A stretch of 64,000 bases of DNA. Source: Isosphaeraceae bacterium. Its GTDB lineage: Bacteria; Planctomycetota; Planctomycetia; Isosphaerales; Isosphaeraceae. Below, piece after piece: positions 544 to 30,503 of this stretch. The number at the start of each line of letters is the position of its first letter. The first letter of the stretch is position 1. The DNA is taken from contig JARLIH010000138.1 of assembly GCA_031291845.1 (NCBI GenBank), positions 1 to 64,000 of the forward strand, read 5' to 3'. A model generated the notes under the pieces. That model was not told the DNA's origin. It made no database searches and saw only the letters and a list, made by a program, of their open reading frames with translations. Both the position numbers and the translations under genes were made by a program.

Positions 544-785
544 CGATGGTCCATCTCGTCAAAGTCTGATGCGGCTCTCGCTGATTTCAATCAGCGCCGG
601 CCTACGGACGGCGGCGCAGCACGTCGGCGGGGTTGGTCTTCGAGAAACGCACGACGCGGGACTTCAAGGACGCCTGCTAACGGCAATGCCCCCCGCACCT
701 CGCGGCCGGCGGAGATGCCGATACCCCGTTCGACGCCGGGTTTAGCACGACGCGGCGGGACGCTCGCGTGGCGAGTCACTGTCTG

Positions 786-2204
786 TCAACCGACCGAACC
801 TTCCATCTGAAGCTGGATGAGCTTGTTCATCTCGACGGCGTACTCCATCGGCAGCTCCTTGACGAGCGGCTCGATGAACCCGCTGACGATCATGGTCGAA
901 GCTTCCGCTTCGCTCAAGCCCCGGCTCATCAGGTAGAAGAGCTGCTCTTCACCGATCTTGGAAACGCTGGCCTCGTGGCCGATCTTGACGTCATCCTCGT
1001 CGATCTCGATGTACGGATACGTATCGGACCGGCTCTGGGAATCAAGAATCAAGGCGTCGCAGACGACGTTCGACTTCGAGCCCTTGGCCCCGTCGGCGAC
1101 CTTCAGCAGACCGCGGTAAGAGGCCCGCCCGCCGTTCTTGCTGATGCTCTTGGAGATGATCCGCGAGCTCGTGTACGGTGCGCCATGGACGACCTTGGCA
1201 CCGGCGTCCTGGTGCTGCCCCTTGCCGGCGAACGCGATGGAGAGGATCTCGCCGCGCGCCCCTTTACCCATCATGTAAACGGCGGGGTACTTCATCGTCA
1301 GCCGGCTGCCGAGGTTGCCGTCGACCCACTCCATCAAGGCGTCCTCGTAGGCAACGGCCCGCTTCGTCACGAGGTTGTAGATGTTGTTCGCCCAGTTCTG
1401 GATGGTCGTGTACCGACAGCGGCCCCCCTTCTTCACGACGATCTCGACGACCGCCGAGTGCAGGCTCTCGCTCGTGTAAATGGGAGCCGTGCAGCCTTCG
1501 ACGTAGTGGACCTGCGCCCCTTCCTCGACGATGATCAGCGTACGCTCGAACTGGCCCATGTTCTCGGCGTTGATCCGGAAGTAGGCCTGGAGCGGGATGT
1601 CAACCTTCACGCCGGCGGGGATATAAACGAACGATCCGCCCGACCAGACGGCCGAGTTCAAGGCCGCGAACTTGTTGTCGTAGATCGGGATGATGGTCCC
1701 GAAATACTCCTTCATCAAGTCCGGGTGCTCTCGCAGCGCGGTGTCCGTGTCGGTGAAGATGACCCCCTTTTTCTGGAGATCCTCTCGCAGGCTGTGGTAG
1801 ACCACCTCCGACTCGTACTGTGCGCCCACGCCCGCGATCAGGCCGCGCTTCTCGGCCTCGGGGATTCCCAGCCGGTCGTACGTCTTCTTGATGTCGGCCG
1901 GGATGTCATCCCAGGTCGCACCCTGGCGGTCGGCGGCCTTCATGTAGTAGTGGATATCGTTATAGTTCAGCTCGCCGAGCTCGCCACCCCAGGTCGGGGT
2001 GGGCTTCGACCAGAAAACGTCGAGCGCCTTCAGCCGAAGCTCACGCATCCAGCGCGGCTCGCTCTTCATCTCGGAGATCTGCTCCACAACCTCGCGGTCC
2101 AACCCCTTACGGCTCTTGAACGAGTAGTGCTCGTCGGAGTCGCGGAAGCCGTACTTGTATTCTTCCTTGATGCCTGCCACCTGGCTGCTGAGATCGGTCG
2201 ACAT
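786..2204 (-). CDS. sufB: Fe-S cluster assembly protein SufB
   Basis: ORF 786..2261, trimmed to the ATG at 2204 (MSTDLSSQ...). At about 470 aa it is SufB-sized. It lies between sufC and sufD on one strand. Confidence 0.85.
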
Positions 2205-2232
2205 CGCGTGTGTTCCTCGCTCGGTCCGTATG

Positions 2233-3066
2233 TTAGTGCGCCAATTGCCCGGCGGTGGCATGCTGTTCCATCTCGTCCTCGTCGCGGGCGGCTTCCGGGT
2301 ACTTCTCGCGGACCCAGTCGTACCCTTCCTTCTCGAGGAGGTCGACTAGCTCCGCTCCGCCGCTTTCAACGATGCGGCCGCCGAAGAGGATGTGGACGAA
2401 ACCCGGCTTGATGTAGTCGAGGATCCGCTTGTAGTGCGTGATCACCAGCACCCCGGTCGCAACCCGCGCCGCGACCTTGTTGACCCCCTCGGCCACGATT
2501 CGAACCGCGTCGATATCGAGGCCGCTGTCGGTCTCATCGAGAATCGCGAAGGCCGGCTGAAGCATCGCGAGCTGAAGGACTTCCGCCCGTTTCTTTTCGC
2601 CCCCTGAAAACCCCTCGTTCAGGTACCGGCGGGCGAACTCGGGGTCCATGCCGAGCTCGTCCATGCGCTCCCGGATCTCCTTCCGGAACTCGCGCATGGA
2701 GACGAGGTCTTCCCCTTCCTTGCGCTCCGGGTTGCGGACGTTGGATACCGCATGCCGGAGAAAGTTGGCGACGGTCACCCCCGGAATCGAAGTCGGGTAC
2801 TGAAATGCCAAGAAGAGCCCGGCCTTGGCGCGCTCGTCGGCCTCCAGCTCGAGCAGTTCCCGCCCGTCGAGCGTCACCGAACCGTCGCTGACTTCGTAGT
2901 TCGGGTGCCCCATCAGGGCGTAGCTCAGCGTGCTCTTGCCCGAGCCGTTCGGTCCCATGAGCGCGTGGACTTCACCCTGCTTGATCGTCAGGTTGACCCC
3001 TTTGAGGATCTCTTTACCGTTGATCGAGACGTGCAGGTTATCGATCTTCAAAACCTTGCTGCTCAT
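2233..3066 (-). CDS. sufC: Fe-S cluster assembly ATPase SufC
   Basis: ORF 2233..3192, trimmed to [13 protein letters not shown]. It has the Walker A motif GPNGSGKST and an LSGGE-like signature (FSGGEKKR). This is the ABC-type ATPase of the SUF system. Confidence 0.9.
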
Positions 3067-3211: not shown

Positions 3212-3853
3212 TCATGCTACCGAGGGTGGAACCAACGGCTTCGCTTCGAAGTCGCAGGAGTGGTGTCCGTCAAGGCGGCACTGGCTCAGCCTTAGGCCGC
3301 GCCCGAGCACCTTCTCGAACATCTTCCGCTCCATGGCGCAGACCGCCCTATCAACCTCGGCCAGCTCATAATAGGGGCACGTGTGCTGGCGAAGGACCGG
3401 CATCATGCCCACGCTCCCCCGCGTCACCTCGGCCTCGATCCCACGGTCATGCAGGATCGTGCCGAGCTGAAACAGCCGCCCTTCCCACTCATCCCCCTGG
3501 ACCTGAGCACGATACAACTCCGCCAGGCGATCCGTAATCCTCTGGAACAGCATCCGACGCAGTTTTCGGTCCTCGACCGACCGCATCATCTCGTCCCAGA
3601 GCACCACCGCCAAGTCCGCGTAATTCTGGCCCAGCCTCTTGTGCGCTTCCACGCTGGCCTGATACGTATATTTGGGCCGGCCACGGCCGCCGTGCTCGGC
3701 CCGCCGCTCGACCATTCCCGAGCCGACGAGTCTACCGAGCCGGTTCCGCACGGCCGTCGCCGTCACGCCAGTGCGACTCGTCAACTCGGCTAGCGATAAA
3801 GGACCGTCGCGTCGGATGAGGTCCAGCAACACGCGGTCCGACGACTCGGTCAT
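3212..3853 (-). CDS. sufR: SufR-like transcriptional regulator: an N-terminal winged HTH plus a C-terminal Cys cluster of the kind that ligands an Fe-S centre
   Basis: ORF 3212..3946, trimmed to MTESSDRVLLDLIRRDGPLSLAELT. That N-terminal stretch is a DeoR/ArsR-type HTH. The C-terminus has C-x12-C-x19-C-x7-C (CPYYELAEVDRAVC...C...C). It sits directly upstream of sufCBD and is co-oriented with it. Confidence 0.7.
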   Translation of the reverse strand: MTESSDRVLLDLIRRDGPLSLAELTSRTGVTATAVRNRLGRLVGSGMVERRAEHGGRGRPKYTYQASVEAHKRLGQNYADLAVVLWDEMMRSVEDRKLRRMLFQRITDRLAELYRAQVQGDEWEGRLFQLGTILHDRGIEAEVTRGSVGMMPVLRQHTCPYYELAEVDRAVCAMERKMFEKVLGRGLRLSQCRLDGHHSCDFEAKPLVPPSVA

Positions 3854-3938
3854 TGAACAAGCTCCGCTGAAGCTGCCAACAACAACGATTCCTATTGTAT
3901 GGAAGGCCGCTCTGGCCGTCCATGCGCACGAGCCGACT

Positions 3939-3960
3939 TTTCGCACATTTTTTTGCGAAA
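3939..3960. promoter_or_regulatory. Perfect inverted repeat TTTCGCA-N8-TGCGAAA in the divergent sufR / DUF1501 intergenic region. It is a candidate operator.
   Basis: 7-bp arms with an 8-nt T-rich spacer, seen directly in the sequence, about 85 nt upstream of the sufR start codon. Confidence 0.4.
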
Positions 3961-4091
3961 TGTCTCTCGCGGTCGTACAGGCGCTACGGCTAAGAGCTAG
4001 CGTTGGTCGCCGTGCCGGGGTATATTGTTAAAGGTTTGTCGATCACGCGCGTGAACCGCGGCTTGTTGGGAACATTGGAGGACCAGGGCCG

Positions 4092-5429
4092 ATGCTCACG
4101 ATTCGGGGGAAGGCTCGTGGCCGTTTCTGTGACGGAGTGACCCGCCGCGATTTCCTGAGGCTCGGGGGGCTCGCGCTCGGGGGGCTATCGCTCCCGAGGT
4201 TGCTCGAAGCGGAAGCCCGCGCGGCGGCTGGGACGTCTCAGAAGGCGGTCATCATGGTTTTTCTGGCGGGCGGGCCGCCGCACCAGGACATGTTCGACCT
4301 CAAACCCGAAGCGCCCGCGGAGATTCGCGGAGAATTCAAGCCGATCGGCACGAACGTGCCCGGCATCGAGATTTGCGAGTTGATGCCAAGGCTAGCGTCG
4401 ATGATGGACAAGCTGGCCATCATTCGCACGATCGTCGGCGCGCAGGGCGAACACGCGGCGGTGCAATGCCTGACCGGTTACCCGGAAGGGGTTAGCCGGC
4501 AGCAGGGGGGCCGGCCCAGTCTGGGAGCGATCCTGTCGCGGATCGAAGGGCCGGTCAGTCCGGCCATTCCGCCTTTCGTCGGGCTTTCGCCCAGGATGGG
4601 GCACGCCCCTTGGGCCGACAACGGCGCACCGGGCTACCTCGGCATCAAGCATGCCCCCTTCACGCCCAATGGCGCGGACGTATCGAGCCTGACCCTGCAA
4701 GGGATCAGCCTGGACCGGCTCGGCGACCGCAAGGGGCTGTTACGGCGCTTTGACACCATCCGCCGGGAGGTCGACGCGAACGGCGCCCTCGAGGGGATGG
4801 ACGCCTTCACGCACCAGGCCTTCGAGATCATCACGTCGAGCAAGTTGGTGGAAGCCCTCGACGTGACTCGCGAAGACCCCAAGCTCCGCGCCAAGTACGG
4901 TTACGGCGACATGAAGAACGTGGACGATGGCGGTCCGTGCTGCATGGACCACTTCCTCGTCGCGCGCCGACTGGTCGAGGCCGGAGCCCGTTGCGTCACC
5001 ATCGGCTTCGGCCGATGGGACTACCACGACCGCAACTTCATCCAATGTCGGGAACGGCTGCCCAAGCTCGACGCCGGCCTCAGCGCCCTGGTCGAAGACC
5101 TGCACGTTCGGGGTCTGGATAAGGACGTCTCCGTCGTGGTATGGGGTGAGTTCGGCCGTACCCCCAAAATCAACCCGCAGGGCGGCCGCGATCACTGGCC
5201 CCCCGTCTCGTGTGCGCTACTGGCGGGCGGGGGCATGAGAACGGGTCAGGTGATCGGCCAGACCAACCGGCTGGGTGAGGTGCCCAAGGATCGGCCGGTG
5301 ACGTTCCAGCAGGTTTTCGCCACGCTCTATCGGAACCTGGGAATCAGCCCCACGACCACCGTTCCCAACCACTTCGGCCGACCGATGTACTTGCTCGACG
5401 ACTTTGAGCCGCTACCCGAGTTGATCTGA
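4092..5429 (+). CDS. DUF1501 family protein (sulfatase-like fold) with a twin-arginine signal
   Basis: The N-terminus has [18 protein letters not shown], a Tat motif. A GGAGG Shine-Dalgarno site lies 9 nt upstream. The overall composition is typical of planctomycete DUF1501 proteins. Confidence 0.85.
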
Positions 5430-5461: not shown

Positions 5462-5499
5462 AGGCCCCCAAAGGAGCCTCGGCCATTCCGGATAGAGCG
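5462..5499. terminator. Perfect 14-bp stem-loop GGAATGGCCGAGGC-N10-GCCTCGGCCATTCC between convergent genes
   Basis: Inverted repeat seen directly in the sequence. It is 33 nt after the DUF1501 stop and downstream of the minus-strand small ORF. It could terminate in both directions. No U-tract follows it. Confidence 0.55.
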
Positions 5500-5570
5500 A
5501 TCGGGGACTGCTGAGCAACTGCGCTTTGGTTGGAGTCGTTCCCACGAACCGGAGCACAGCTCGTTCGCGA

Positions 5571-5859: not shown

Positions 5860-8033
5860 TCAGTGGGGCCCGTTGGTCCCACTGTTCGCTGCCACCAATA
5901 CCGGTTCGCTCCCAAGCTGACCCTCGGCCGGCTCGGCTTTGGGTTCCACGGCTTGCTGCATTGAATCCATCGCGTGCTTGGCCATACGGTCCGCGAACTC
6001 CTGGAGCGTGGAGTTCGCCCCGGTGCTCGAGAGCTCGAAACCCGACTTCTCCGCGACCAGGAGGTTGATCAGGAGCCCCAGCAGGCCGGAGCCCGCGGCC
6101 GTGCCATTGCCGTCGGCGAGGCTGCCGTTTCCTCCCGCCATGAAGACGCGCTCGGGCACCAGCGGCTGCTCGCTATGCGCAAGTTCCTGGGCGACCATCG
6201 ACAGGGCATAGAGCCGAGGGTCCGAGAACGACTGGATCTTGCGCAGCAACACCGACGCCTCGGAAAGCCCGACCTGGAGCAGTCGCGAACCCTCGCCGCG
6301 CCCCGCAAGAACCCGTTGCTGGCTCTCGGCCTGGGCGGTCACGACGAGTTGCTCAGCCTGCTTTCGGGCCCGAGCCAGCGATGCTTCGCCCTCGTTCTCG
6401 GCGATGCGCACCTGCACGAGCGAGTTCGTCAGCGAGGTTTGCATGGCGGCCTGAGCCTGGGCCTCGTTCAACACCCGCAGTTTATCCGACGCCGCCACCT
6501 GGCGCTCGTAGGTCTCGATCTGCTCGATCGAGAGCTGACGCAGTCGCAACTGCTCGAGCAGCGTCTCGATCTTGCCGCCGGCCTCGGCCGTGTCGGGCTT
6601 GCCGATCAGCACGTCGACGCACTCGATGTCAAACTCGTGGAACTTCCGGCGCAGCTCTTCGCGTGCCTCGTTTTGGATCTCGTCGCGCTCGTGCAAAAGC
6701 TGGAGCATCGTCTTTTTGTGTGCGACGTCCCGGAAGTAAGCGCTCAGCATCGGGTCGAGCGTCTGGGTGATCAGCTTCTTCACGTCGCCGAATCGCTGGA
6801 TGACGCTCGGCGCCTTTTGATAGTCGATGTGCACGACCACCGAAAGGGGCAGGAGCGGCTCGTACGCATCCTTGGTGACGAGGTCGATCGACCGAAGGCT
6901 CTCGTCGTAACGGTGCGTTTCGGTCCGGCCCGTGACCCAGTGCAGCACGAAGTTCGTGGTTGGCACGAGGATGATGTTGCCGGCGTACGTGTTGAACGGG
7001 TACTTGCCCGGGCCGAGCGGGCGTTCCCAAACGCCGCGCTCTCCCTCGGCAACGCGCTCGCCGTGGCGGAACTTATCGCCGGAGAGGTCGTGGCCGGTCC
7101 GCCCCACGTAACTGACGACCACGCCCACGTAGCCGATCGGCACGACCGTCTTCGGAATCGACTCGACGGTCGCAAACCAACGGTTGATGAAGTACGTTCC
7201 GTTGGTCAGCGGAACGTACTGCAAGCCGCGACGGCCGCCGGCGAGCAGGAACGCCTCGGTGTCCTGGTAGTTGTTATGGTAGAACTTCTCCGCGCGGTCG
7301 GTGCCGACCGCAGGCGCAATGATCTCGCCCGGACCGAGCGACGGGCCGTCCATCACCGTGACGATGCCGATGCTGTCGACCAGCATCACCTTGCCGGGCG
7401 CGAACGGGTCGGGAGCCTCGACGGGGCCGCCGATCACGACCGGCAGGAACCCGGACTCGTGGTTGAGTTCCGCCTGCCAGCTCACCAGCGTCTTCAACTC
7501 GCGTTGCCCGCCGACGTCAAGCCGGTACACGGCGTCGTCGGTGATCACGACGAAGAGCGCCAGGTTGATGGCATAGACGCCCTCGCGAAGAATCGCACGT
7601 TGGCGACCCCGCTGGCCGATCACCGGCTCCTGCTCCGGACCCTGAGCCTTGCCCAGCAGGTACGCCCGCGCGTCCTGGAAATTGTTGCAGTCGACGACCG
7701 TTCCGAGTGTCTGGCTGGGCGGCAGTGGCTCACCGTCCCTGGCGTAGACGTAGCCGATTTTTCCCTGGGGCACCGTCACCAGCGGCACGCGGTGGATCTT
7801 GAACTGCCAGCGCCACAGCCCGAAATGCAGCCCCCCACGCAAGAGGTCGGCCTGCAAACCGGCCTCGCCGTTCAAAGCGATAATGCGCCCGTCGGTCACC
7901 GAGCCCTTCGGAGACCAGAGCTTCTCCACGATGCCGACGCGGTTATTGGAGATGTAACGCATCCCCAAAACCTCGCAGAGGACGATCACCCCAACCACGA
8001 ATGCGATCAACCAGAACACGCCCGACGCCATCC
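5860..8033 (-). CDS. Flotillin / band-7 (SPFH) domain membrane protein, YqiK-like
   Basis: ORF 5860..8130. The start was chosen at MASGVFWLIAFVVGVIVL, an N-terminal transmembrane helix. It carries an SPFH domain and a long coiled-coil, Ala/Gln-rich C-terminal half (EQLRLRQLSIEQIETYERQ...). The start is uncertain and could be 8130. Confidence 0.75.
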
Positions 8034-8368
8034 CCGGCGCTGTTTGAGCCCACAGGGAGAGCAGGGACCCCGTCACCGGAAGACCCACGTTGAAACTCCT
8101 TTGCTGAATGAAGGCGGCGGTCCGGACCAAGCCGATTCTTGGGTTGAAGCCGGTCCCACATCGTTGACCTGGATGACCCAGGCGGGAGCGGATCGTTCGC
8201 CCGCTCGCACTTCCCAGGGTATTCGTGCTCCCGGTGGGTTATTGGAGAAAACCACAACGGGTCAGGTGTGTTACAGATTGAGGACATGTTGGGATGGAAC
8301 CTTGAAGTCGGGAGGCTTCCCACCACCACGAAGGACAGCGAGTGATCGCCCGTACTCGAACGCGGCTG

Positions 8369-8398
8369 TTGACGGGGGACGCGAGGCGTTTCTAAGAT
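8369..8398 (+). promoter_or_regulatory. Candidate sigma70-like promoter, TTGACG-18 nt-TAAGAT, just upstream of the CYTH gene
   Basis: Seen in the sequence. The -10 element ends about 8 nt before the ATG at 8406, which would give a near-leaderless transcript. Confidence 0.3.
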
Positions 8399-8405
8399 TT
8401 TCGTC

Positions 8406-9011
8406 ATGGGCTACGAGGTCGAGCTGAAATTCCGCGCGGTGGAGCACGCTGAACTCGCGAAGCGGTTAGCGGAACTGGGGGCCAGCGCCGAGCCGCCGGT
8501 CGCACAGGAAGACCTGTACCTGGCCCATCCGTGCCGTGACTTCGCCCAGACGAATGAGGCGTTCCGGATCCGGCGGGTCGGCCACGACAATTTCGTCACC
8601 TATAAGGGCCCAAAACACCCGGGAGCGACGAAAACCCGGGAAGAAATCGAAATCCCCGTCTTGGCGTCCGAAGAGGGCTTCGCCAGAGTCCGTGTGCTGT
8701 TGGAAAGGCTTGGCTTCTCGCCGGTTGCGACCATCCGGAAAGTGCGGACGACGTTCCGGCTTGAGTATGCGGGGCGTTCGTTGGAAGTGGCGCTTGATGC
8801 CGCGGAGCAAATCGGCGATTTCGCCGAGGTCGAGACCCTCGCTGCCAGCCAGGAAGACTTGCCGCACGCCCAGGATGCGGTTCTCGAGTGTGCGAAGGCT
8901 TTGGGTCTCAACCAGGTCGAGCCGCGTTCTTACCTGCGAATGGCGCTCGAGCGGGCTGACGCAGCGCCTCATTCTCATCCCGCCATGGCAACGTCCCTCC
9001 CTGATCGATAG
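8406..9011 (+). CDS. CYTH-domain protein (triphosphate tunnel metalloenzyme; class IV adenylyl cyclase / thiamine-triphosphatase-like)
   Basis: N-terminal EVELKFR, the ExExK signature of CYTH domains. About 200 aa. Confidence 0.75.
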   Translation: MGYEVELKFRAVEHAELAKRLAELGASAEPPVAQEDLYLAHPCRDFAQTNEAFRIRRVGHDNFVTYKGPKHPGATKTREEIEIPVLASEEGFARVRVLLERLGFSPVATIRKVRTTFRLEYAGRSLEVALDAAEQIGDFAEVETLAASQEDLPHAQDAVLECAKALGLNQVEPRSYLRMALERADAAPHSHPAMATSLPDR

Positions 9012-9044
9012 CGGAGCGAGCTCGGGCAGCGCGGGCCGAGGTCG

Positions 9045-10073
9045 TTGACTTTCGCCCTTTTCGTGCGGCCGTCTCTCGGAACCCGACTGGCCAGACTTGA
9101 GGCGATCTGGTATGAACTCGCCCGACCGGGGAACGGAGTCCCGCGGGTCTCATGTCTTGTCGGTGACACGTCCGAGGAGATTCGCGCGATGGATCGCCAC
9201 CGCTTCGTCCCCTCAACGGAAGCGCTCGATCAGCGCACTCTATTGAGTAGTACCGGGCTCTTCGGGCAGTCGGGTTCGTCGTCGACCTTGACCGGTTCGT
9301 CGGCCAGCACGCACACACCGGACACGTTTAACCAGAAGCTGCTGCGTATCGAGCGAATTCCTTATTACCTCGATAACCTCCAGTCCAAGCGATTTCTGTC
9401 CCCAGCAACGCTCCAATCTCTCCAGACTGACATCTTGGCCGTGGCGGCCGACCTTCACCCCGCCCCGCCTCCGGTGCTGCGGGCATTTAACCTGCAAATC
9501 CGCAAGATGCTGCCCAAGGTCAGTCTAAGCCCCCAAGACGTCGCGAAAGTGAACAACCTGTTCGGGCTTGTCATCCGTTCGGAAGGCGCAACCGAGCAGC
9601 AGGTTGCGAACCTTCAGAAGGACATGCTCTCCATTGCCAAGGCGGATGCCGCCAGTCCGAACTCGGTCTATCTGGCCACGAACGACTATTCGATCATGGT
9701 CCAAGGTGTGTCGATCATCGGCCGCCCGATCGAAACTCCGGCCAATCCGGTCCTGGCGTTGGGGAGTGGTGTTCGTTTGAAGACGGCTGGGTTCGGCGGG
9801 ACGCGCGACCCGCTGCCGACATTCGTCGGCACCTACCGGACCGGGTCCAAGGTCGATCCCGGTACGCGTGTCGAAATCTCGACCCTGAAGGGTGAGGTCC
9901 TCGGCTCGGGCACTGTGATCCTCGGCGGGCAGGACGCGGGCCACTACCGCTTCACGCTCGATCAGCCGCTACAGCCGGGCATCAACTGGCTCCGGATCCG
10001 CGCAGTCGATGCGGAAGGGCACCTGAGCACCGGGAGCTCGGTCTTCGCGGTCAAGCTGGTCACCAGCCGCTAG
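9045..10073 (+). CDS. Hypothetical protein whose C-terminal part may be Ig-like
   Basis: Long ORF with a TTG start at 9045. An alternative ATG at 9189 (MDRHRFVPSTE) is equally plausible. I recognise no conserved domain. Confidence 0.45.
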   Translation: MTFALFVRPSLGTRLARLEAIWYELARPGNGVPRVSCLVGDTSEEIRAMDRHRFVPSTEALDQRTLLSSTGLFGQSGSSSTLTGSSASTHTPDTFNQKLLRIERIPYYLDNLQSKRFLSPATLQSLQTDILAVAADLHPAPPPVLRAFNLQIRKMLPKVSLSPQDVAKVNNLFGLVIRSEGATEQQVANLQKDMLSIAKADAASPNSVYLATNDYSIMVQGVSIIGRPIETPANPVLALGSGVRLKTAGFGGTRDPLPTFVGTYRTGSKVDPGTRVEISTLKGEVLGSGTVILGGQDAGHYRFTLDQPLQPGINWLRIRAVDAEGHLSTGSSVFAVKLVTSR

Positions 10074-13614: not shown

Positions 13615-15711
13615 ATGACCGCGACCCCGAGCGACTCCAACCGGCCGGTGAACCGGTTGGCCGAAGAGACCAGCCCCTACCTGTTGCAGCACGCGCACAA
13701 CCCGGTGGATTGGTACCCTTGGGGCGAGGAGGCACTGCTTCGCGCTCGTAGCGAGGGAAAGCCGATCTTTCTGTCGATCGGCTATTCGGCGTGCCACTGG
13801 TGCCACGTGATGGAGCGAGAGAGTTTCGAGAACCCGGCAATCGCGCGCACGATGAACGACCACTTCATCAACATCAAAGTGGATCGGGAGGAGCGACCGG
13901 ACCTCGACCAGATTTACATGTCCGCGGTTCAGGCGATGACCGAACATGGCGGTTGGCCGATGTCGGTCTTCCTGACGCCCGACCTGAAGCCGTTCTTCGG
14001 CGGGACGTATTACCCGCCCGACGACTCGCGGGGGATGCCGGGGTTCCCCCGCGTCCTGTTGAGCGTGCACCGCGCCTGGCAAGAGCGACGAGACGAGATC
14101 GAGGCACACGCGGGTCAAATGGTCGAGCACCTGAATGCCTTGACCCATTTGCCCGAGGGGCAGGGGGGACTGTCGGAGCGGCTGATCGAGCAAGCCGCAC
14201 GGCAACTCGAGCGGTCGTTCGACCCGGCCCACGGTGGCTTCGGCTCGGCCCCCAAGTTCCCCCACGCGATGGACCTTCGGCTGTTACTGCGCCACTTCGC
14301 CCGCAAAGGGGACGCCCACGCGTTGCACGTGGTCCGACACACGCTCGACAAAATGGCGCGCGGGGGCCTCTACGATCACCTCGGCGGGGGCTTCGCCCGG
14401 TACTCGACCGACGATCGCTGGCTCGTCCCCCACTTCGAGAAAATGCTCTACGACAACGCGCTGCTCACGTCGGCCTATCTCGAGGCCTACCAGGTGACGG
14501 GCGACGTTGAGCTGGCGCGGGTTGCACGCGAGACGATGGACTACGTCCTGACACGGATGACCAGCTCCGACGGAGCGTTCTATTCGACCGAAGACGCGGA
14601 CAGCGAAGGCGAGGAAGGGAAGTACTACGTCTGGACGATCGCCGAAGTCAACGGCATCCTCGGCGCCGAGCGCGGACGGGTGTTCTGCTACGCTTACGAC
14701 GTGACGGAAAGCGGAAACTGGGAAGGGAAGAATATTCTCAACCTCCCCAAAACCGTTGCCCAGGCGGCGAAGATGCTTGGCCGGGAAGAGAACGAGCTGC
14801 GGAGCGAACTCGACGAGGACCGATCGCGGCTGCTCGCCACACGCGAGAACCGAACCCCGCCGGGGAAAGACACGAAGGTCCTTACGTCGTGGAACGGACT
14901 GATGATCGTCGCGCTGGCCGAAGGCGGTCGCGTGCTGAAGGACGAACGCTACATCGACGCCGCGACTCGGGCCGCCGGTTTCTTGCTCGACCGGATGCGG
15001 GACGACCGGGGAAGGCTCAGGCACAGTTTCAAGGATGGACAGGCGCGGTTCAACGGCTATCTGGACGACTACGCGAATCTCGTCGATGGACTGACCCGCC
15101 TGTTCGAGGTGACGGGGGCCGGCCAGTGGCTCGAAGCGGCACTCGCACTCTCGGACGTGATGATCGAGGAGTTCGCCGACTCGGAGCGCGGCGGGTTCTT
15201 TTACACCGGCGAGAGCCACGAAGCGCTCATCACGCGGCCCCGCGATACGTACGACAATGCAACCCCCTCCGGCAACGCCATGGCTGCGACCGCACTTTTG
15301 CGTCTCGCCGCACTCACCGGCCGGAGCGCACTGCTTGATTCGGGGCGCAAGACGCTGGAATCGATGCAGGTCATTCTCGAAAAAGCCCCAACAGCGGCGG
15401 GGCAGAGCCTCATTGCCCTCGATTTCCTGCTCGGACCGACGCAGGAATTTGCCGTTTTCGGCGGCTGGGACCGCACGGAGCTTCGCGCGGTGCTCGAGGC
15501 GATCAACGGCCGGTTCCTCCCTCATAAAGTCGTCGCGCCCGTTCCGCCCGAGGCTAAGCTCGACCTGGTGGCTTCACTACCGTTGCTGGCGGGGCGATCG
15601 GCGCGCGACGGATGCACGACGACGTATGTGTGTGAAAACTTCGCCTGCCGCGAGCCCGTGTTCGGTGTCGACGGAGTCGAATCGTTTTTTGGCTCCCGGC
15701 CGAAGGACTAG
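13615..15711 (+). CDS. Thioredoxin-domain protein of the DUF255/YyaL family (a thioredoxin fold fused to a six-hairpin glycosidase-like domain)
   Basis: N-terminal [22 protein letters not shown]...[13 protein letters not shown] is the conserved DUF255 thioredoxin-like motif. About 700 aa. Confidence 0.8.
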
Positions 15712-15872
15712 CGCATCGGCCGGCATCCAGCCTCACACGAGACTTGCGGCGCCGGCCGGGGAACGACTAAATTGGAACTTGAGTATCCTCCGACGCGCCG
15801 AACACGCCGCTGCCGGAACCTTCTGCCGACTTGTCCGCGCCCGAGAGTCACATCCCCAGGAGGGGACCCGCA

Positions 15873-17306
15873 ATGCCTGACCGGAGATTCTTCGCCTTCG
15901 CGCTCATCGGCGCGACGTCGCTCGTGACTTGGCAGGCCACCCAGGGAGCCAAGCCGAAGGACGAGATGTTGGAACTGTACGGCGTGTTCGCCGAGGCCGT
16001 GGAGCAGGTCGAGGCGAATTACGTCCGGCCCGTGAGCCGCAAGGAGTTGCTCGAGACGGCCCTTCAGGGGATGTTGCAGAACCTCGACCCCCACTCGCAG
16101 TTCATCAACACGAGCGAGTGGAAAGCGTTCAAGCGCAAGATTGAGGGCCGGTTCGGCGGCATCGGGATCACGGTCGAGATGGACCCCACCGGCCGCCCGC
16201 GCGTCGTGGCGCCGATGGTCGGGACCCCGGCCTACGAGGCGGGCATCCTTGCCGGCGACCTGATCGTCGAGATCGACGGCGAATCGACGGAAGGAATTAC
16301 GCCGGACAAAGCGGTCGATGCGCTCTCCGGCCGTCCCGGGACGGCGGTCAAGCTCTCCGTGCTGCACGAGGGCGAAGAAAAGCCGGAGAACATCACGATC
16401 AATCGCGCGATCATCGACGTGCCCAGCGTCCTTGGCGATGTCCGGAAGGGGAACGACGACTGGGACTTCATGATCGATAAAGACAAGAAAATTGCTTATA
16501 TCCGCATCTCCAGTTTTATTCAAAACACCACCGAGGAACTCAAGAAGGCGCTTGCTGAGCTGAAATCGGAGGGGGTCAAGGGATTGGTTCTCGACCTGCG
16601 CGACAACCCCGGCGGCTTGCTCAGCTCGGCGGTCGAGGTTTCCGACCTGTTCGTCGACGACGGGACGATTGTCAGTACGAAAGGCCGGAATACGCCGAAG
16701 AAGACGTTTGAGGCTCATAAGGAAGGAAATCCGAACGACTACCCGATCGTGGTGCTCATCAACCAAGGGTCGGCGTCCGCCGCGGAGATCGTGTCGGCCT
16801 GCTTGCAAGACCACAAGCGCGCGGTGATAGTGGGTCACCGCTCGTTCGGCAAGGGCTCGGTGCAGAACATCTTCGACCTCGACGACGGGAACAGCGTGCT
16901 CAAGCTTACCGTGGCCAGCTATTTCCGGCCTTCGGGCAAGAACATCCACCGCTTCAAGAACGCGAAGAAGTCGGACGAGTGGGGTGTGTCCCCCGACGAA
17001 GGTATGGCGGTTGAGCTGACGCCGGAACAGTACATGGCTTGGGCCCGCTCGCGGCGCGATCGAGACCTCGAGTCGAACGCCAAAGGCCGACGCAACAAAC
17101 ACGAGGACGCCGCGAAGGACAAGCCGAAAGAAGACAAACCGAAGGAAGGCAAACCCGGCCCCGACGCCAAGACAGGCGCGGCGGCCAAACCGGGTGACAC
17201 GCCTGCCAAAGAGGAGGCCCGGAAAAAGCCGTTCGTCGATAAACAGCTCGATAAGGCGCTTCAAGTGATCCGCGAAAAGCTCGAGCTGGCCACGGCGAAG
17301 AAGTGA
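15873..17306 (+). CDS. ctpA: Carboxyl-terminal processing protease (S41 family; PDZ plus peptidase) with a Lys/Pro-rich tail
   Basis: N-terminal signal (MPDRRFFAFALIGATSLV) and a PDZ domain. The S41 catalytic region is LVLDLRDNPGG...SASAAEI. An AGGAGG site lies 13 nt upstream of the ATG at 15873. Confidence 0.85.
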   Translation: MPDRRFFAFALIGATSLVTWQATQGAKPKDEMLELYGVFAEAVEQVEANYVRPVSRKELLETALQGMLQNLDPHSQFINTSEWKAFKRKIEGRFGGIGITVEMDPTGRPRVVAPMVGTPAYEAGILAGDLIVEIDGESTEGITPDKAVDALSGRPGTAVKLSVLHEGEEKPENITINRAIIDVPSVLGDVRKGNDDWDFMIDKDKKIAYIRISSFIQNTTEELKKALAELKSEGVKGLVLDLRDNPGGLLSSAVEVSDLFVDDGTIVSTKGRNTPKKTFEAHKEGNPNDYPIVVLINQGSASAAEIVSACLQDHKRAVIVGHRSFGKGSVQNIFDLDDGNSVLKLTVASYFRPSGKNIHRFKNAKKSDEWGVSPDEGMAVELTPEQYMAWARSRRDRDLESNAKGRRNKHEDAAKDKPKEDKPKEGKPGPDAKTGAAAKPGDTPAKEEARKKPFVDKQLDKALQVIREKLELATAKK

Positions 17307-17388
17307 GCTCCCTGCCGAGGACCGCCTGAGACCTTGCGGCAGTCCCAGCCCGCAAGCGTTAAGTTGGGCCAACTCCGAAAGTGTCTCG

Positions 17389-18453
17389 ATGCCCACCGAC
17401 CGTTTTGTGTTCTTGGGCATCGAGACTACGTGCGACGAGACCGGCGCTGCGGTGCTCGAAGGCCCGCGCCCTCCTCGCACGGGCGTTCCACAGGTGCGGT
17501 CGAGCGTCGTCGCGTCTCAAATCACGCTCCACGACAGGTTTGGGGGCGTTGTTCCCGAGGTTGCTTCGCGCGCCCACGTGCGGCAGATTTTGCCGGTCAT
17601 TGATGAAGCTTTGCGCAGGGCGTCCACAAGGCTGAGTGAAATCGAAGCGGTCGCCGTCGCGACCCGGCCCGGACTGGTCGGCTCGCTGGTCGTCGGCCTC
17701 ACCGCGGCGAAGGCGCTGTCGCTCGCGCTTGGGATGCCGCTTGTTTCCGTCGATCATCTGGAGGGCCATCTCTACGCCTGCCAGCTCGCACACCCGGAGC
17801 GGGAGGTTTATCCGTCGATCGGGCTCGTGGTCTCCGGCGGCCATACCAGTCTTTATCACTGCCGGGGCCCGGTGGATGCCGAACTCCTGGGCGGTACGAT
17901 TGACGACGCGGCGGGCGAAGCGTTCGACAAGGTGGCGAGCCTGCTCGGACTTGCCTATCCCGGCGGCCCGGAGATCGAACGCGTCGCGCGCGAGGGCAAC
18001 CCCCGCGCATACGCCTTTCCCCGCTCGTGTCTGCACGAGGAACGGATCGCTTTCAGTTTCTCGGGGCTCAAGACCGCTGTCCTCTACGCCTTGCGCGGGC
18101 AGGATGCCCGAGCGACGGGGGTCGCTCCGACAGCCCAGACCGTGGCCGACGTCGCGGCGAGCTTTCAGGAGGCCGTGATCGACGTCCTGGTCGCCAAGTC
18201 CCGACAGGCGCTCCGTCGCGCCGGACTCCGTCGGCTCGGGATCGGCGGCGGCGTCGCAGCGAATGGACGGTTTCGCGAGCGACTCACGGCCATGGCGCTC
18301 GAGGAAGGGATCGAGCTGTTCATTCCCCCCTTGTCACTGTGTACCGATAACGCCGCACTCTGCGCTGTGGCATTGCCGAAGCTGGCTCGAGGCGATGTCG
18401 CCGCGCTGGATATTGACGTGAGCCCCGGTCTCGTCAGACCGACGAGAGCTTGA
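17389..18453 (+). CDS. tsaD: tRNA N6-adenosine threonylcarbamoyltransferase (Kae1/Gcp family)
   Basis: VFLGIETTCDETGAAVL...VASRAHV...LVVSGGHTSLY...GLAYPGGPEIE are diagnostic TsaD motifs. Confidence 0.9.
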   Translation: MPTDRFVFLGIETTCDETGAAVLEGPRPPRTGVPQVRSSVVASQITLHDRFGGVVPEVASRAHVRQILPVIDEALRRASTRLSEIEAVAVATRPGLVGSLVVGLTAAKALSLALGMPLVSVDHLEGHLYACQLAHPEREVYPSIGLVVSGGHTSLYHCRGPVDAELLGGTIDDAAGEAFDKVASLLGLAYPGGPEIERVAREGNPRAYAFPRSCLHEERIAFSFSGLKTAVLYALRGQDARATGVAPTAQTVADVAASFQEAVIDVLVAKSRQALRRAGLRRLGIGGGVAANGRFRERLTAMALEEGIELFIPPLSLCTDNAALCAVALPKLARGDVAALDIDVSPGLVRPTRA

Positions 18454-27644: not shown

Positions 27645-30503
27645 ATGCGAAACGCCATCGCCGCAACGCTGACCGTCCAGTTCGTTGTAGTCGCCGGTCT
27701 CTTGCTTGCGATACGTTCGGGCACAGTGCCGTTAGGGGTAGCGGGGGAATGGGAGTGGCTGCGTCTCCCCCGGACCATCGCGCCAACGGCCACCGGCGTC
27801 GCGCTCGCGCTCGTCGGTATTGGATCGCTCGGGGTTTTCGCTGCGGCGGGTTGGCGTTCGTTGGGGCGAAAGGCGACACCGTTTCGTGAAGGGGCGTGGG
27901 TCACCGCGCTATTCGTTCTTTCGCTGCTCACCCAGATGCTTGTGCCCAGCGGTGCGCCGGAGGCTTACGACCTCGCGCGTTGGGCCAACGTCCCGTTCTT
28001 CGCCGCGTCTTCGGGCTATTACCAGGTTGCGCGGACGGAAATCCGGGATCCGTGGCGGTTCCTGGCCGACTACCCCGACTGGATCAAGCACCAGGACGCC
28101 CTGCACATCGGCACTCATCCCCCGGGCTTGTTTGTGGTGGAGCACGGCCTGTTGCGGGTGATGACGACGAATCCCCGCACCGCGGAATGTGTCGTGGCGG
28201 CGATGCCGTGGCCGGTGCAAGGGGGGCTCGCGTTCCTGGGACGGCTCTACTCACTCCCGATCGCCGACCGGGCCGCGCTGGCGCTGACAGCCGCCTTGAC
28301 CGTCTTTGGGTGCGCGGCGACCGTCGTGCCGCTCTATCTCCTTGCCCGCGTCCATATGCCGGCTCCGACGGCCTGGATGGCGGCATGTCTCTGGCCCCTG
28401 GTCCCATCCACGCTGCTCTTCCAGCCGGTCACCGACACGGCGTTCCCACTCCTCTCGGCGACCTCCCTCATGCTCGCGTCCCGGGCAACGTCCGCACGTG
28501 CGGGCAACGCCCTGGCGCTCGCGGCCGGGGTCATCCTGGGAGTGGGGATGATGTTCACGCTCGCGTTCTTGCCCGTCGGCCTCATCGTGGGCATCGTCCT
28601 GGTCACGGCTCCCGGCACGACGTTGCGGCGACGGGTGTTGCTCGTGGCAAGCACAGGGGTGGGGTTTCTCGGCCTCACTCTGATCGCCTGGTCGATCAGC
28701 CGCGCGGACCCATTCGTCATCTGGTGGTGGAACCTTCGGAATCATTCCCGCTTTTACGTCGAGTACCCCCGGAGCTATGGCGCGTGGGTTCTCGTGAACC
28801 CGGTGGAGTTCGCCACGGGTCTGGGTCTCCCGGTGGTCGTGTGGGCCATCCTTGGTTACTGGAAATGCCGCGAGGCACCACGCGTCAGTTGGGCGACACT
28901 CGCGGTGCTCGTTTTGATGAACTTCAGCGGGAAGAATTTGAGCGAAGTGGGGCGGCTTTGGCTCCCGTTCATGCCCCCGTTCTGTGTCGCCGCGGCAGAC
29001 GGGATGATGCGTTTAAGGGCAGGAGGCAAGACGCTCGCGCTGACACTCGTCTTGCTGGGCGCGCAATCCCTCGCGATGGAATCTCTGATCCAGGTCGTTT
29101 ATCCCATCGTTCCGGGAGCCGCGGCGTCGGATGCCGGGTCACAAAAACACGTGCGTGAGACGGACGCCCAGCTCCGTGTCGATCTGGACCAGCTCACCGC
29201 GCGCGACGAGTCGCCCACCCGACGTCAGCTCGACGGGCGCGCGGCTGTGCCGGCCAAGCTCGATGACATCCCCCGGCTTGAGGTCCGCCAGGCGGCTCAG
29301 GGAGAGGTTCACACGTCCCAGCTCGACCACGAGGGTGACGGGGACCTCCGCCGGCGCCACGCCGCCGACGCCTGGGCTGGGTGCGGATTCGGACGAGGGG
29401 TTCACGGCGATCGCCTCCCGGGGCTTGAGTTCTCGTTGCAGGGGAGCAGTCAATCTCAAACGGCCTCCGCCGGAAAGCGGCAGCGGCTCGGCCGGGAACC
29501 AGCAGCGCTCGCCCCGATCCGAGAACGAGGCGGCCAGCGCGACGGCCCCGGCGAGGTTTTGAGGCGTTCCACGAAGCGGCGAATCCGTGAGCGGCAAGAT
29601 GGCCCCCGCACGGAACCTCGCGAGCCCTCGGGGCAAGATCAACACGCCCGCCTCGGCACACCACTGCGTGCTGAGTGTGCCGAAACGATCACTGGCCAGG
29701 TTCAGGTCGTCGGCAAGACGCGGCTCAGGGCCGTCGAGCCACTGGGCCACGAGCGCCTCGGGAACCCACAGGCGCGCGGAGCTGGCCAGCGAACCGAGCC
29801 GTACAGGCCACCGCAGCGTGACGAGCGCGCCGACGTCGCTCGGATCGAACGGGTCGGGGCCGACTCGGTCGATCACGATGTCCCAATCGCCGAGCACTCC
29901 CGGTTCCGTTGCGAGCTCTTGAAGCGAGCGTGCCACGACGAACGTCAAGATTCCCCACTCGACGGGCGTCAACTGCAGCCGGCTCTCTTCCTCGGCACGG
30001 TTATATCCGAGCAGGCGATCCACCAGCGCGTGCGCCAAGGGATTTTCGAGTCCGAGGGCAAACTTGGTCGCATACCGTGGCCAAGAAAACTGGGCCACGA
30101 GCCCGGACCGTTTCAGCCCGGAGGCCCGCCAAAGGACCTCGACCCGATCCGGTGTCATCTCCGCGCCTGTCCAGCGCTGGAGCCACCGGCACGCGCCCGG
30201 CAAGGTGCCGGGAGCCAGAACCCGGGAAAGCTTCCGGCCCAGTTGGACTCCGCGGTGAGAGAGTCGCGGCAACGGCCCCAGCGGGCCAGCGTCGGAGACC
30301 CATCGATCGTCATCCTCCGGGTCGGCGGCAAGCTTGCTCGCAGCGCGATTCACGCGACGTCCTCCGGCTTGCACGTCCACAACCCTTCGTCGCGTAATTG
30401 GTCCGTTGCGACCTGGAGGATTCGCGTCTCCCACTCGACCCAAGCAGCACTCACTTTGGGCTTCGGCGGCATCACGGATCGAACGAACTTGGCGGCCGGA
30501 TAG
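27645..30503 (+). CDS. Polytopic membrane protein, possibly a DUF2029/GT87-like glycosyltransferase. Only the first roughly 490 codons (27645 to about 29140) look like real coding sequence. The ORF has no in-frame stop until 30503 and runs antisense through the convergent FliM/FliN-like gene.
   Basis: Hydrophobic TM-rich translation up to ...SLIQVVYPIV near 29110. After that it is Arg-rich and low-complexity, typical of an antisense GC-rich frame. A TGA at 29156 is in a different frame. This may be a frameshift or sequencing error, or a real C-terminal end that I cannot resolve. Confidence 0.45.
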   Translation: MRNAIAATLTVQFVVVAGLLLAIRSGTVPLGVAGEWEWLRLPRTIAPTATGVALALVGIGSLGVFAAAGWRSLGRKATPFREGAWVTALFVLSLLTQMLVPSGAPEAYDLARWANVPFFAASSGYYQVARTEIRDPWRFLADYPDWIKHQDALHIGTHPPGLFVVEHGLLRVMTTNPRTAECVVAAMPWPVQGGLAFLGRLYSLPIADRAALALTAALTVFGCAATVVPLYLLARVHMPAPTAWMAACLWPLVPSTLLFQPVTDTAFPLLSATSLMLASRATSARAGNALALAAGVILGVGMMFTLAFLPVGLIVGIVLVTAPGTTLRRRVLLVASTGVGFLGLTLIAWSISRADPFVIWWWNLRNHSRFYVEYPRSYGAWVLVNPVEFATGLGLPVVVWAILGYWKCREAPRVSWATLAVLVLMNFSGKNLSEVGRLWLPFMPPFCVAAADGMMRLRAGGKTLALTLVLLGAQSLAMESLIQVVYPIVPGAAASDAGSQKHVRETDAQLRVDLDQLTARDESPTRRQLDGRAAVPAKLDDIPRLEVRQAAQGEVHTSQLDHEGDGDLRRRHAADAWAGCGFGRGVHGDRLPGLEFSLQGSSQSQTASAGKRQRLGREPAALAPIRERGGQRDGPGEVLRRSTKRRIRERQDGPRTEPREPSGQDQHARLGTPLRAECAETITGQVQVVGKTRLRAVEPLGHERLGNPQARGAGQRTEPYRPPQRDERADVARIERVGADSVDHDVPIAEHSRFRCELLKRACHDERQDSPLDGRQLQPALFLGTVISEQAIHQRVRQGIFESEGKLGRIPWPRKLGHEPGPFQPGGPPKDLDPIRCHLRACPALEPPARARQGAGSQNPGKLPAQLDSAVRESRQRPQRASVGDPSIVILRVGGKLARSAIHATSSGLHVHNPSSRNWSVATWRIRVSHSTQAALTLGFGGITDRTNLAAG
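29139..30158 (-). CDS. FliM/FliN-like switch-complex family protein, SctQ-like, with a C-terminal SpoA (surface presentation of antigens) domain
   Basis: The C-terminus VTLVVELGRVNLSLSRLADLKPGDVIELGRHSRAPVELTSGGRLVARGELVQIDTELGVRLTHVF aligns with the FliN/FliM C-terminal domain. The middle LTPVEWGILTFVVARSLQEL resembles the FliM central region. The ORF extends to 30443. The start was placed at the ATG at 30158 to avoid overlapping the upstream gene. Confidence 0.65.
   Translation of the reverse strand: MTPDRVEVLWRASGLKRSGLVAQFSWPRYATKFALGLENPLAHALVDRLLGYNRAEEESRLQLTPVEWGILTFVVARSLQELATEPGVLGDWDIVIDRVGPDPFDPSDVGALVTLRWPVRLGSLASSARLWVPEALVAQWLDGPEPRLADDLNLASDRFGTLSTQWCAEAGVLILPRGLARFRAGAILPLTDSPLRGTPQNLAGAVALAASFSDRGERCWFPAEPLPLSGGGRLRLTAPLQRELKPREAIAVNPSSESAPSPGVGGVAPAEVPVTLVVELGRVNLSLSRLADLKPGDVIELGRHSRAPVELTSGGRLVARGELVQIDTELGVRLTHVFL

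Follow-up and report, generated by a model that had tools for sequence, protein, structure and literature searches.

A probable old stop-codon loss joins a GT-C-like transferase gene to a tolerated antisense tail in an Isosphaeraceae sub-clade

How does a bacterial membrane-protein gene come to lack a stop codon where its product ought to end, its frame remaining open antisense through the whole of the convergent neighbour? The question is raised by a 64,000-nucleotide (nt) stretch of DNA from an Isosphaeraceae bacterium (GenBank assembly GCA_031291845.1, contig JARLIH010000138.1, positions 1 to 64,000; hereafter the window), whose plus strand carries at 27645-30503 an open reading frame (ORF) of 952 codons, from an ATG start to a TAG stop at 30501-30503. 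An initial annotation had taken the first part of this ORF for a genuine membrane protein and the remainder for the antisense of a minus-strand gene coding for a FliM/FliN-like protein with a SpoA domain (the SpoA gene), and had offered an assembly frameshift or a pseudogene in the making as explanations. The antisense arrangement proved to be exact, since the distance between the first base of the ORF and position 29139, where the SpoA gene ends, is a multiple of three ((29139-27645) mod 3 = 0) and every plus-strand codon from there on is the reverse complement of a minus-strand codon. Neither explanation fitted the data presented below, which probably reflect an old loss of the stop codon, followed by tolerance of an antisense shadow tail on a transferase that still works.

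Homologues of the first part of the ORF were plentiful (563 matches, mostly from Isosphaeraceae and Singulisphaera), and most of them are 485-490 amino acids (aa) long. Over 100 columns were invariant in their alignments, GEWEW in the first loop and the terminal IQVVYP among them, and the window transferase keeps all the family-invariant residues. An invariant HxGTHPPG was also present among the motifs of the family. Pfam, NCBIfam and PDB sequence-profile searches with the transferase gave no match. An AlphaFold (AF2) model of the core, built on 15 sequences, reached a predicted local distance difference test score (pLDDT) of 87 and a predicted template modelling score (pTM) of 0.91, and Foldseek searches with this model returned AglB, STT3, PglB, ArnT, PMT and ALG9 with probability 1.0, E-values down to 5e-4 and TM-scores of ~0.4. 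From the model, the first 488 codons are predicted to encode an integral-membrane glycosyltransferase of the GT-C fold. With the GT-C enzymes listed above the window transferase shares a polytopic helical fold and acidic residues in the first extracytoplasmic loop; it differs from them in having no sequence-family match, a TM-score of only about 0.4 and no C-terminal soluble domain. The acidic residues are E35 and E37 of GEWEW, invariant in one of our alignments (A2) and nearly invariant in the other (A1, which includes the divergent homologue P0076 discussed below); such residues are a GT-C-like trait, and their catalytic role is putative. Taken as a whole, this appears to be a GT-C family that lacks curation and has its centre in Planctomycetota; its members are inconsistently named 'methylthioxylose transferase', RgtA/B/C/D-like or PMT.

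The end of this core is sharply defined. The last predicted helix spans residues 461-481, and the conserved C-terminus of the family reaches nt 29108; the initial annotation had likewise placed the end of the transmembrane helices near 29110. Canonical aligned homologues end one residue past an invariant proline, Pro487. To follow the fate of the stop codon, 87 related loci were fetched, and the QVVYP terminus, the next stop and the convergent SpoA gene were located in each. More than 40 loci with a QVVYP terminus had a stop (TGA, TAA or TAG) directly after QVVYPx, and three others (L024, L039 and L050) terminated 1-4 codons past the usual position. Since nearly all orthologues with this terminus stop there, the missing stop at codon 489 is not a matter of chance; the window has GTT at this codon and reads on, which bears out the earlier suspicion of a lost stop.

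The window was not alone in this respect. The same codon was GTY in L005/L006 (equivalent to P0001, from two Joint Genome Institute (JGI) samples) and in L001 (a metagenome-assembled genome of Singulisphaera sp.), and valine in P0002, which was available as protein only. These stop-less relatives were 70% (L005/L006), 56% (L001) and 58% (P0002) identical to the window protein, and carried tails of 121, 153 and 161 aa, respectively, to be compared with the 464 aa (linker plus antisense part) that follow codon 488 in the window. From YPx to the SpoA stop, the distance was 30 nt in the window, L005/L006 and L001, in every case in frame and beginning GTY CCN, while the P0002 linker comprised 9 codons (27 nt) and also started with V-P; a V-P-x-A sequence at the linker start was common to the four stop-less members despite third-position changes. 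When 44 transferase cores were placed in a neighbour-joining tree calculated with Kimura distances, the four stop-less sequences formed one clade in 169 of 200 bootstraps (the long branches of L002 and L003 in this tree are artefacts of wrong-frame extraction). Synonymous divergence (dS) within the clade was 1.4-1.8, at or past saturation. The in-frame linkers of 27-30 nt starting with V-P, the shared clade and the saturated dS thus point to a single, old stop loss in the ancestor of the clade. Where the stop is kept, the convergent spacer between the transferase and SpoA genes is in many relatives only 6-25 nt long, and therefore a small deletion or substitution would have sufficed to fuse the two frames.

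A possible fifth member, P0076/L007, also lacks the stop but was kept out of the clade: it branches in another part of the tree, no SpoA gene follows it, and its junction, CCC GGC G TGA, resembles a separate 1-nt frameshift (insertion). The L007 locus looks rearranged or degraded: positions 6440-9435 hold the transferase 3' end and then a repeated CCGATTCACGT motif, a 497-aa ORF downstream of the transferase is a putative transposase, and the upstream MFS gene is fragmented. Another peculiar locus, L003, keeps the stop and has at 5466-5535 a 69-nt, extremely AT-rich convergent spacer, TATATTAATATTAAATTTATATTTAATGAATA, in an otherwise GC-rich genome; its tblastn match to the transferase is broken, which may indicate a frameshift.

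We then asked why the frame stays open for so long beyond the junction. In exact antisense register, stops arise only opposite TTA, CTA and TCA codons of the sense gene. Together, these three codons made up 0.69% of the 19,289 codons of the window ORF set (chosen greedily, longest ORF first, and still with a few shadow ORFs in it), in a genome of 64% GC. The SpoA gene has none of them, as expected for ~5% of 434-codon genes. The frame was equally open in relatives in which it is not fused to anything: antisense-register runs through the SpoA orthologue extended over 452 (L029), 407 (L030), 455 (L033), 475 (L049) and 473 (L076) codons, and all five of these loci keep the transferase stop. Within the window itself, 28 pairs of opposite-strand ORFs in exact register share 600 nt or more, and the pair at 27645-30503 ranks fifth among them. 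In 3 of the 28 pairs the shadow ORF is longer than its partner (Table 1); these three longer ORFs have a GC content at the first codon position (GC1) far above that at the third (GC3), and their shorter partners show a coding-like GC3 of 0.82-0.87. Gene calling based on length would choose the wrong strand at these three pairs too. Because TTA, CTA and TCA are rare in this GC-rich genome and the frame runs to the first such codon, a long open antisense frame is no more than chance gives here, and long frame -1 ORFs have likewise been ascribed to the codon bias of the sense gene (PMC3454372).

Substitution patterns told apart the two strands of the overlap. When the last 110 SpoA codons were compared between relatives in the minus frame, the ratio of non-synonymous to synonymous rates (dN/dS) was 0.09-0.11 and aa identity 81-89%; read as plus-frame tail, the same 110 codons gave an apparent dN/dS of 1.6-1.8 and an identity of 39-59%. 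This segment differs at 58 nucleotides between the window and L005, 42 of them at position 3 of the minus codons, and the plus-frame substitutions in the tail fall on position 1 of the plus codons. Codon usage led to the same view. We trained a log-likelihood ratio (LLR), which sets the sense register against the antisense one, on 12,345 codons taken from other window genes. In bits per codon, the core scored +0.40, a value as high as in other genes, the SpoA gene +0.17, the linker +0.07 and the tail -0.11; the switch lies within 29085-29264. Base composition changed from GC1/GC2/GC3 values of 0.65/0.52/0.80 before 29139 to 0.76/0.54/0.74 after it, mirroring the minus-strand gene, although GC3 by itself discriminates weakly (0.80 vs 0.74) and the LLR is clearer. 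In an AlphaFold model of the full-length product the core was again confident and residues 485-952 had a pLDDT of 23-43; Pfam found no match anywhere in the 952-aa ORF, tail included. As had been remarked, the extension is arginine-rich (62 R in 464 aa, net charge +16), and it contains no hydrophobic segment. Given that the frame is open in stop-keeping relatives, that tail length varies, that dN/dS exceeds 1 and that pLDDT is low, the tail is a passive shadow ORF without constraint, fold or fixed length, and not a genuine plus-strand coding sequence, as the initial annotation had suspected for everything past ~29110. Only the 30-nt linker is free of constraint from the opposite strand.

The core behaved very differently from a decaying sequence. 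Its plus-frame dN/dS was 0.15 between the window and L005 (488 codons, 70% aa identity) and 0.18-0.25 against L001 (59-61% identity); one of the L001 comparisons covers just 294 codons owing to a mis-picked start, with a result of the same sign as the other pairs. Neither frameshifts nor internal stops were found in the core of any of the four stop-less members. These values indicate that purifying selection still acts on the core, which is not decaying, so that the enzyme presumably still works.

With these data at hand, the competing explanations could be weighed. An indel or miscall near 29100-29115 that erased a real stop had some appeal, since a one-base shift would yield a stop at the out-of-frame TGA that had been noticed near 29156 and does lie at 29156-29158. 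That TGA is without role, however: reading the L005/L006 and L001 linkers by eye, we found no equivalent stop in either of the other two frames. Moreover, no single-base change restores the canonical YPx-stop end, and the same stop-less junction, with its in-frame linker and GTY CCN, recurs in three other independent assemblies from different samples, at 56-70% protein identity, so that we regard a sequence error as exceedingly improbable. We also rejected transcriptional slippage at 29143-29147, since the A5 run found there is conserved neither in L005/L006 nor in L001. If the transferase were instead a pseudogene in the making, its product tagged through transfer-messenger RNA (tmRNA) or misfolded, the loss of the native stop, the disruption of a rigid C-terminus and the lack of a terminator downstream would all be accounted for. 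Pseudogene status is nevertheless very unlikely, considering that dN/dS stayed at 0.15-0.25 within the stop-less clade while dS exceeded 1, that the invariant residues are intact and the four reading frames undamaged, and that the core LLR is normal. The extension could also be a selected C-terminal domain, or a true antisense gene overprinting SpoA, and its sheer length, the conserved V-P-x-A and the translated long antisense ORFs reported in GC-rich Pseudomonas (PMC8850804) may be cited in favour of this idea; a four-fold variation in tail length among relatives, a plus-frame dN/dS of 1.6-1.8, the low pLDDT, the lack of a Pfam match and the equally open frame in unfused relatives make it extremely doubtful.

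A regulatory explanation deserves separate mention. Ribosomes reading through the junction might shield the transcript from Rho, and the resulting antisense transcription would repress the operon of SpoA and two-component genes in a manner coupled to transferase expression. The convergent genes are indeed 30 nt apart without a terminator-like hairpin or unusual RNA structure between them, and the linker, free as it is of constraint, has not acquired a stop again in any of the four lineages. Against this, a stop-free 10-codon linker has a calculated probability of ~0.76 per lineage at 64% GC, that is, it is expected by chance in ~76% of lineages, and therefore gives no signal that read-through itself is selected; besides, spacers are shorter still where the stop is kept, and transcripts in those relatives must overlap already. 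We give this mechanism a slim chance, and see a similarly small one that selection maintains the stop-less state, be it through a translation-coupled switch between envelope glycosylation and the SpoA/two-component module or because V-P-x-A is now part of the enzyme. An old stop loss with a tolerated tail remains the probable explanation, but several points weigh against it. The clade consists of four independent sequences only, one of them (P0002) a protein without DNA, and the exact change by which the stop was lost could not be traced. The conservation of V-P-x-A hints, weakly, that translation reaches the first added residues and that they are of some importance. In addition, the family C-terminus is very rigid: the core model has just three β segments, a terminal strand at 482-485 and two (31-32 and 36-40) in the GEWEW loop, and the C-terminus appears packed as a strand beside that loop on the periplasmic side. 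Long-term tolerance of an arginine-rich appendage of 121-464 aa on such an end is somewhat surprising.

The course of events that we favour would be as follows. The ancestor of an Isosphaeraceae sub-clade would have lost the stop codon of a GT-C transferase gene lying tail-to-tail with a SpoA gene, through a change that left a 30-nt linker joining the transferase frame in exact register to the SpoA antisense strand. From then on the frame would run until the first TTA, CTA or TCA codon of the neighbour, met after 464 codons here and after 121-161 in the relatives. Ribosomes should read into the tail, because there is no in-frame stop, no terminator-like hairpin, no unusual RNA structure and no Rfam element to prevent it: a terminator and promoter scan of 28800-30700 detected nothing at the junction and a single hairpin on the minus strand (30104-30092), RNA folding of 29060-29240 gave z = +0.53 with no special structure, and Rfam found no family over the whole window. 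As for the fate of the product, a Kyte-Doolittle threshold was too crude to count transmembrane (TM) helices, and topology was deduced from K/R-rich loops together with the secondary structure of the model. Since such loops occur at residues 321-330, 406-413 and 455-461 and a single arginine precedes TM1 at the N-terminus, the old C-terminus of the transferase would face the periplasm. The disordered, arginine-rich tail would consequently be exported and then trimmed by periplasmic proteases; alternatively, ribosomes may reach the end of a truncated mRNA and be rescued by tmRNA.

Set against known systems, the case combines two familiar things, a stop-codon shift that makes a convergent overlap and a frame -1 shadow ORF in a GC-rich genome. 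Shadow ORFs are usually free-standing and never translated. The tail shares with them the exact register, the avoidance of TTA, CTA and TCA by the sense gene, the mirrored GC1 and GC3 and the absence of conservation of its own, but it is fused, with no in-frame stop in between, to the 3' end of a gene that is real and looks expressed. Typical convergent overlaps, in turn, amount to a few codons. Those below 30 codons have been called 'trivial' (PMC3454372), and a passage of PMC4161906 (citing Vakhrusheva et al. 2011, J Mol Evol 72:138) describes convergent overlaps as arising by movement of the stop codon. A lineage-specific stop loss, a run to the next in-frame stop and an overlapped convergent neighbour are all found in our locus, where the nominal overlap is, by contrast, a whole gene of 404 codons plus 51 codons of the next. 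Two long overlapping genes in Pseudomonas aeruginosa have been reported to be translated and under purifying selection (PMC8850804); like the tail, they are long antisense ORFs inside GC-rich genes, from which the tail differs by its apparent dN/dS above 1, its variable length and its lack of a predicted fold. What is unusual here is the scale and the persistence: the overlap spans a whole gene and has been retained down to 56% protein identity, at a C-terminus that is otherwise fixed.

The gene overlapped by the tail is well supported, as had been claimed. Pfam FliMN_C (PF01052) matched residues 366-432 of the maximal minus-strand ORF (29139..30443, 434 aa, TTG start at 30443) with E = 4.4e-20 and 71.8 bits against a gathering cutoff of 23.8; NCBIfam equivalogs stayed below their cutoffs (SctQ, of the type III secretion cytoplasmic ring and the best match, 82.4 vs 100.8; FliN 54.7 vs 84.05). 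SpoA orthologues aligned over nearly their full length in more than 15 syntenic loci and partially in others, and the dN/dS of the full gene was 0.23. A GGAGG 7 nt upstream of GTG 30353, a GTGA overlap (30350-30353) of this start with the stop of the gene for a 335-aa protein and orthologue alignments reaching residues 1-28 make GTG 30353 most likely the real start, and TTG 30443 probably is not; the GTGA overlap and the GGAGG also suggest translational coupling of the two genes. For the 335-aa protein, Pfam and NCBIfam gave no match and syntenic orthologues were found at 29-56% identity. Contrary to what had been noted, the far end of the plus-strand ORF (30350-30503, 154 nt) overlaps the 3' end of this gene and not its start. 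The order MFS transporter (-), transferase (+), SpoA (-), 335-aa protein (-), response regulator (-) and REC-histidine kinase (-) was syntenic in more than 25 loci. SpoA is the last gene of a minus-strand run at 29139-36555 (Table 1), and its clustering with two-component genes was syntenic in many Isosphaeraceae loci, which ties a FliN/SctQ-like protein to two-component signalling. No flagellar or type III secretion genes were seen in a scan that covered just a few neighbours of SpoA.

Table 1. Coordinates of the features at the transferase-SpoA junction, in the neighbouring operon and at the three window loci with a shadow ORF longer than its partner.
Feature	Position	Strand	Remarks
Conserved core, predicted GT-C-fold membrane glycosyltransferase	27645..29108	+	488 codons, ends ...IQVVYPI
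Ancestral stop position	29109..29111	+	GTT (Val489) in the window; from ortholog comparison
In-frame linker, old C-terminus to SpoA gene stop codon	29109..29138	+	10 codons, VPGAAASDAG
Shadow-ORF tail	29139..30503	+	454 codons + stop; antisense of whole SpoA gene and last 51 codons of 335-aa gene
Out-of-frame TGA	29156-29158	+	Ends ORF 27896..29158; not conserved
SpoA/FliN-C-domain protein	29139..30353	-	404 aa; GTG start 30353 (most likely); TGA stop 29139-29141
335-aa protein	30350..31357	-	ORF; upstream neighbour of SpoA gene, same operon
288-aa response regulator	31297-32163	-	
REC-histidine kinase	32160-33416	-	
Single-domain response regulator	33426-33950	-	
PAS histidine kinase	34006-36555	-	
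Longer shadow ORF	768-2411	+	Partner 786-2261 (-)
Longer shadow ORF	5974-8427	+	Partner 5860-8130 (-)
Longer shadow ORF	15708-17480	-	Partner 15831-17306 (+)

The consequences for annotation that had been anticipated are already visible. For L005, L006 and the P0002 contig, the JGI annotation has the long plus-strand ORF (610 and 649 aa) but no SpoA gene, and for L005 it also has a second antisense ORF at 3587-4432. Full-length homologues of about 950 aa were not found; the extended homologues are these proteins of 610 and 649 aa, whose tails are similar only in so far as they mirror the SpoA gene in antisense. An exact look-up in the protein collection found neither the 952-aa ORF, nor the 335-aa ORF, nor any of six SpoA start variants, among which the GTG and TTG variants may miss by their V or L first residue. 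Callers that favour length thus take a chimeric ORF of 610-952 aa and drop a real SpoA-domain gene, and such calls pollute protein databases with antisense 'proteins' and hide a conserved member of the operon. For the biology of the family, the locus offers a clean natural example of a gene that seems to have survived for long without a stop of its own, the length of its tail being set entirely by the codon choice of its neighbour, and it may serve as a test case for how bacteria handle long nonsense extensions on membrane proteins, through export, proteolytic trimming or ribosome rescue.

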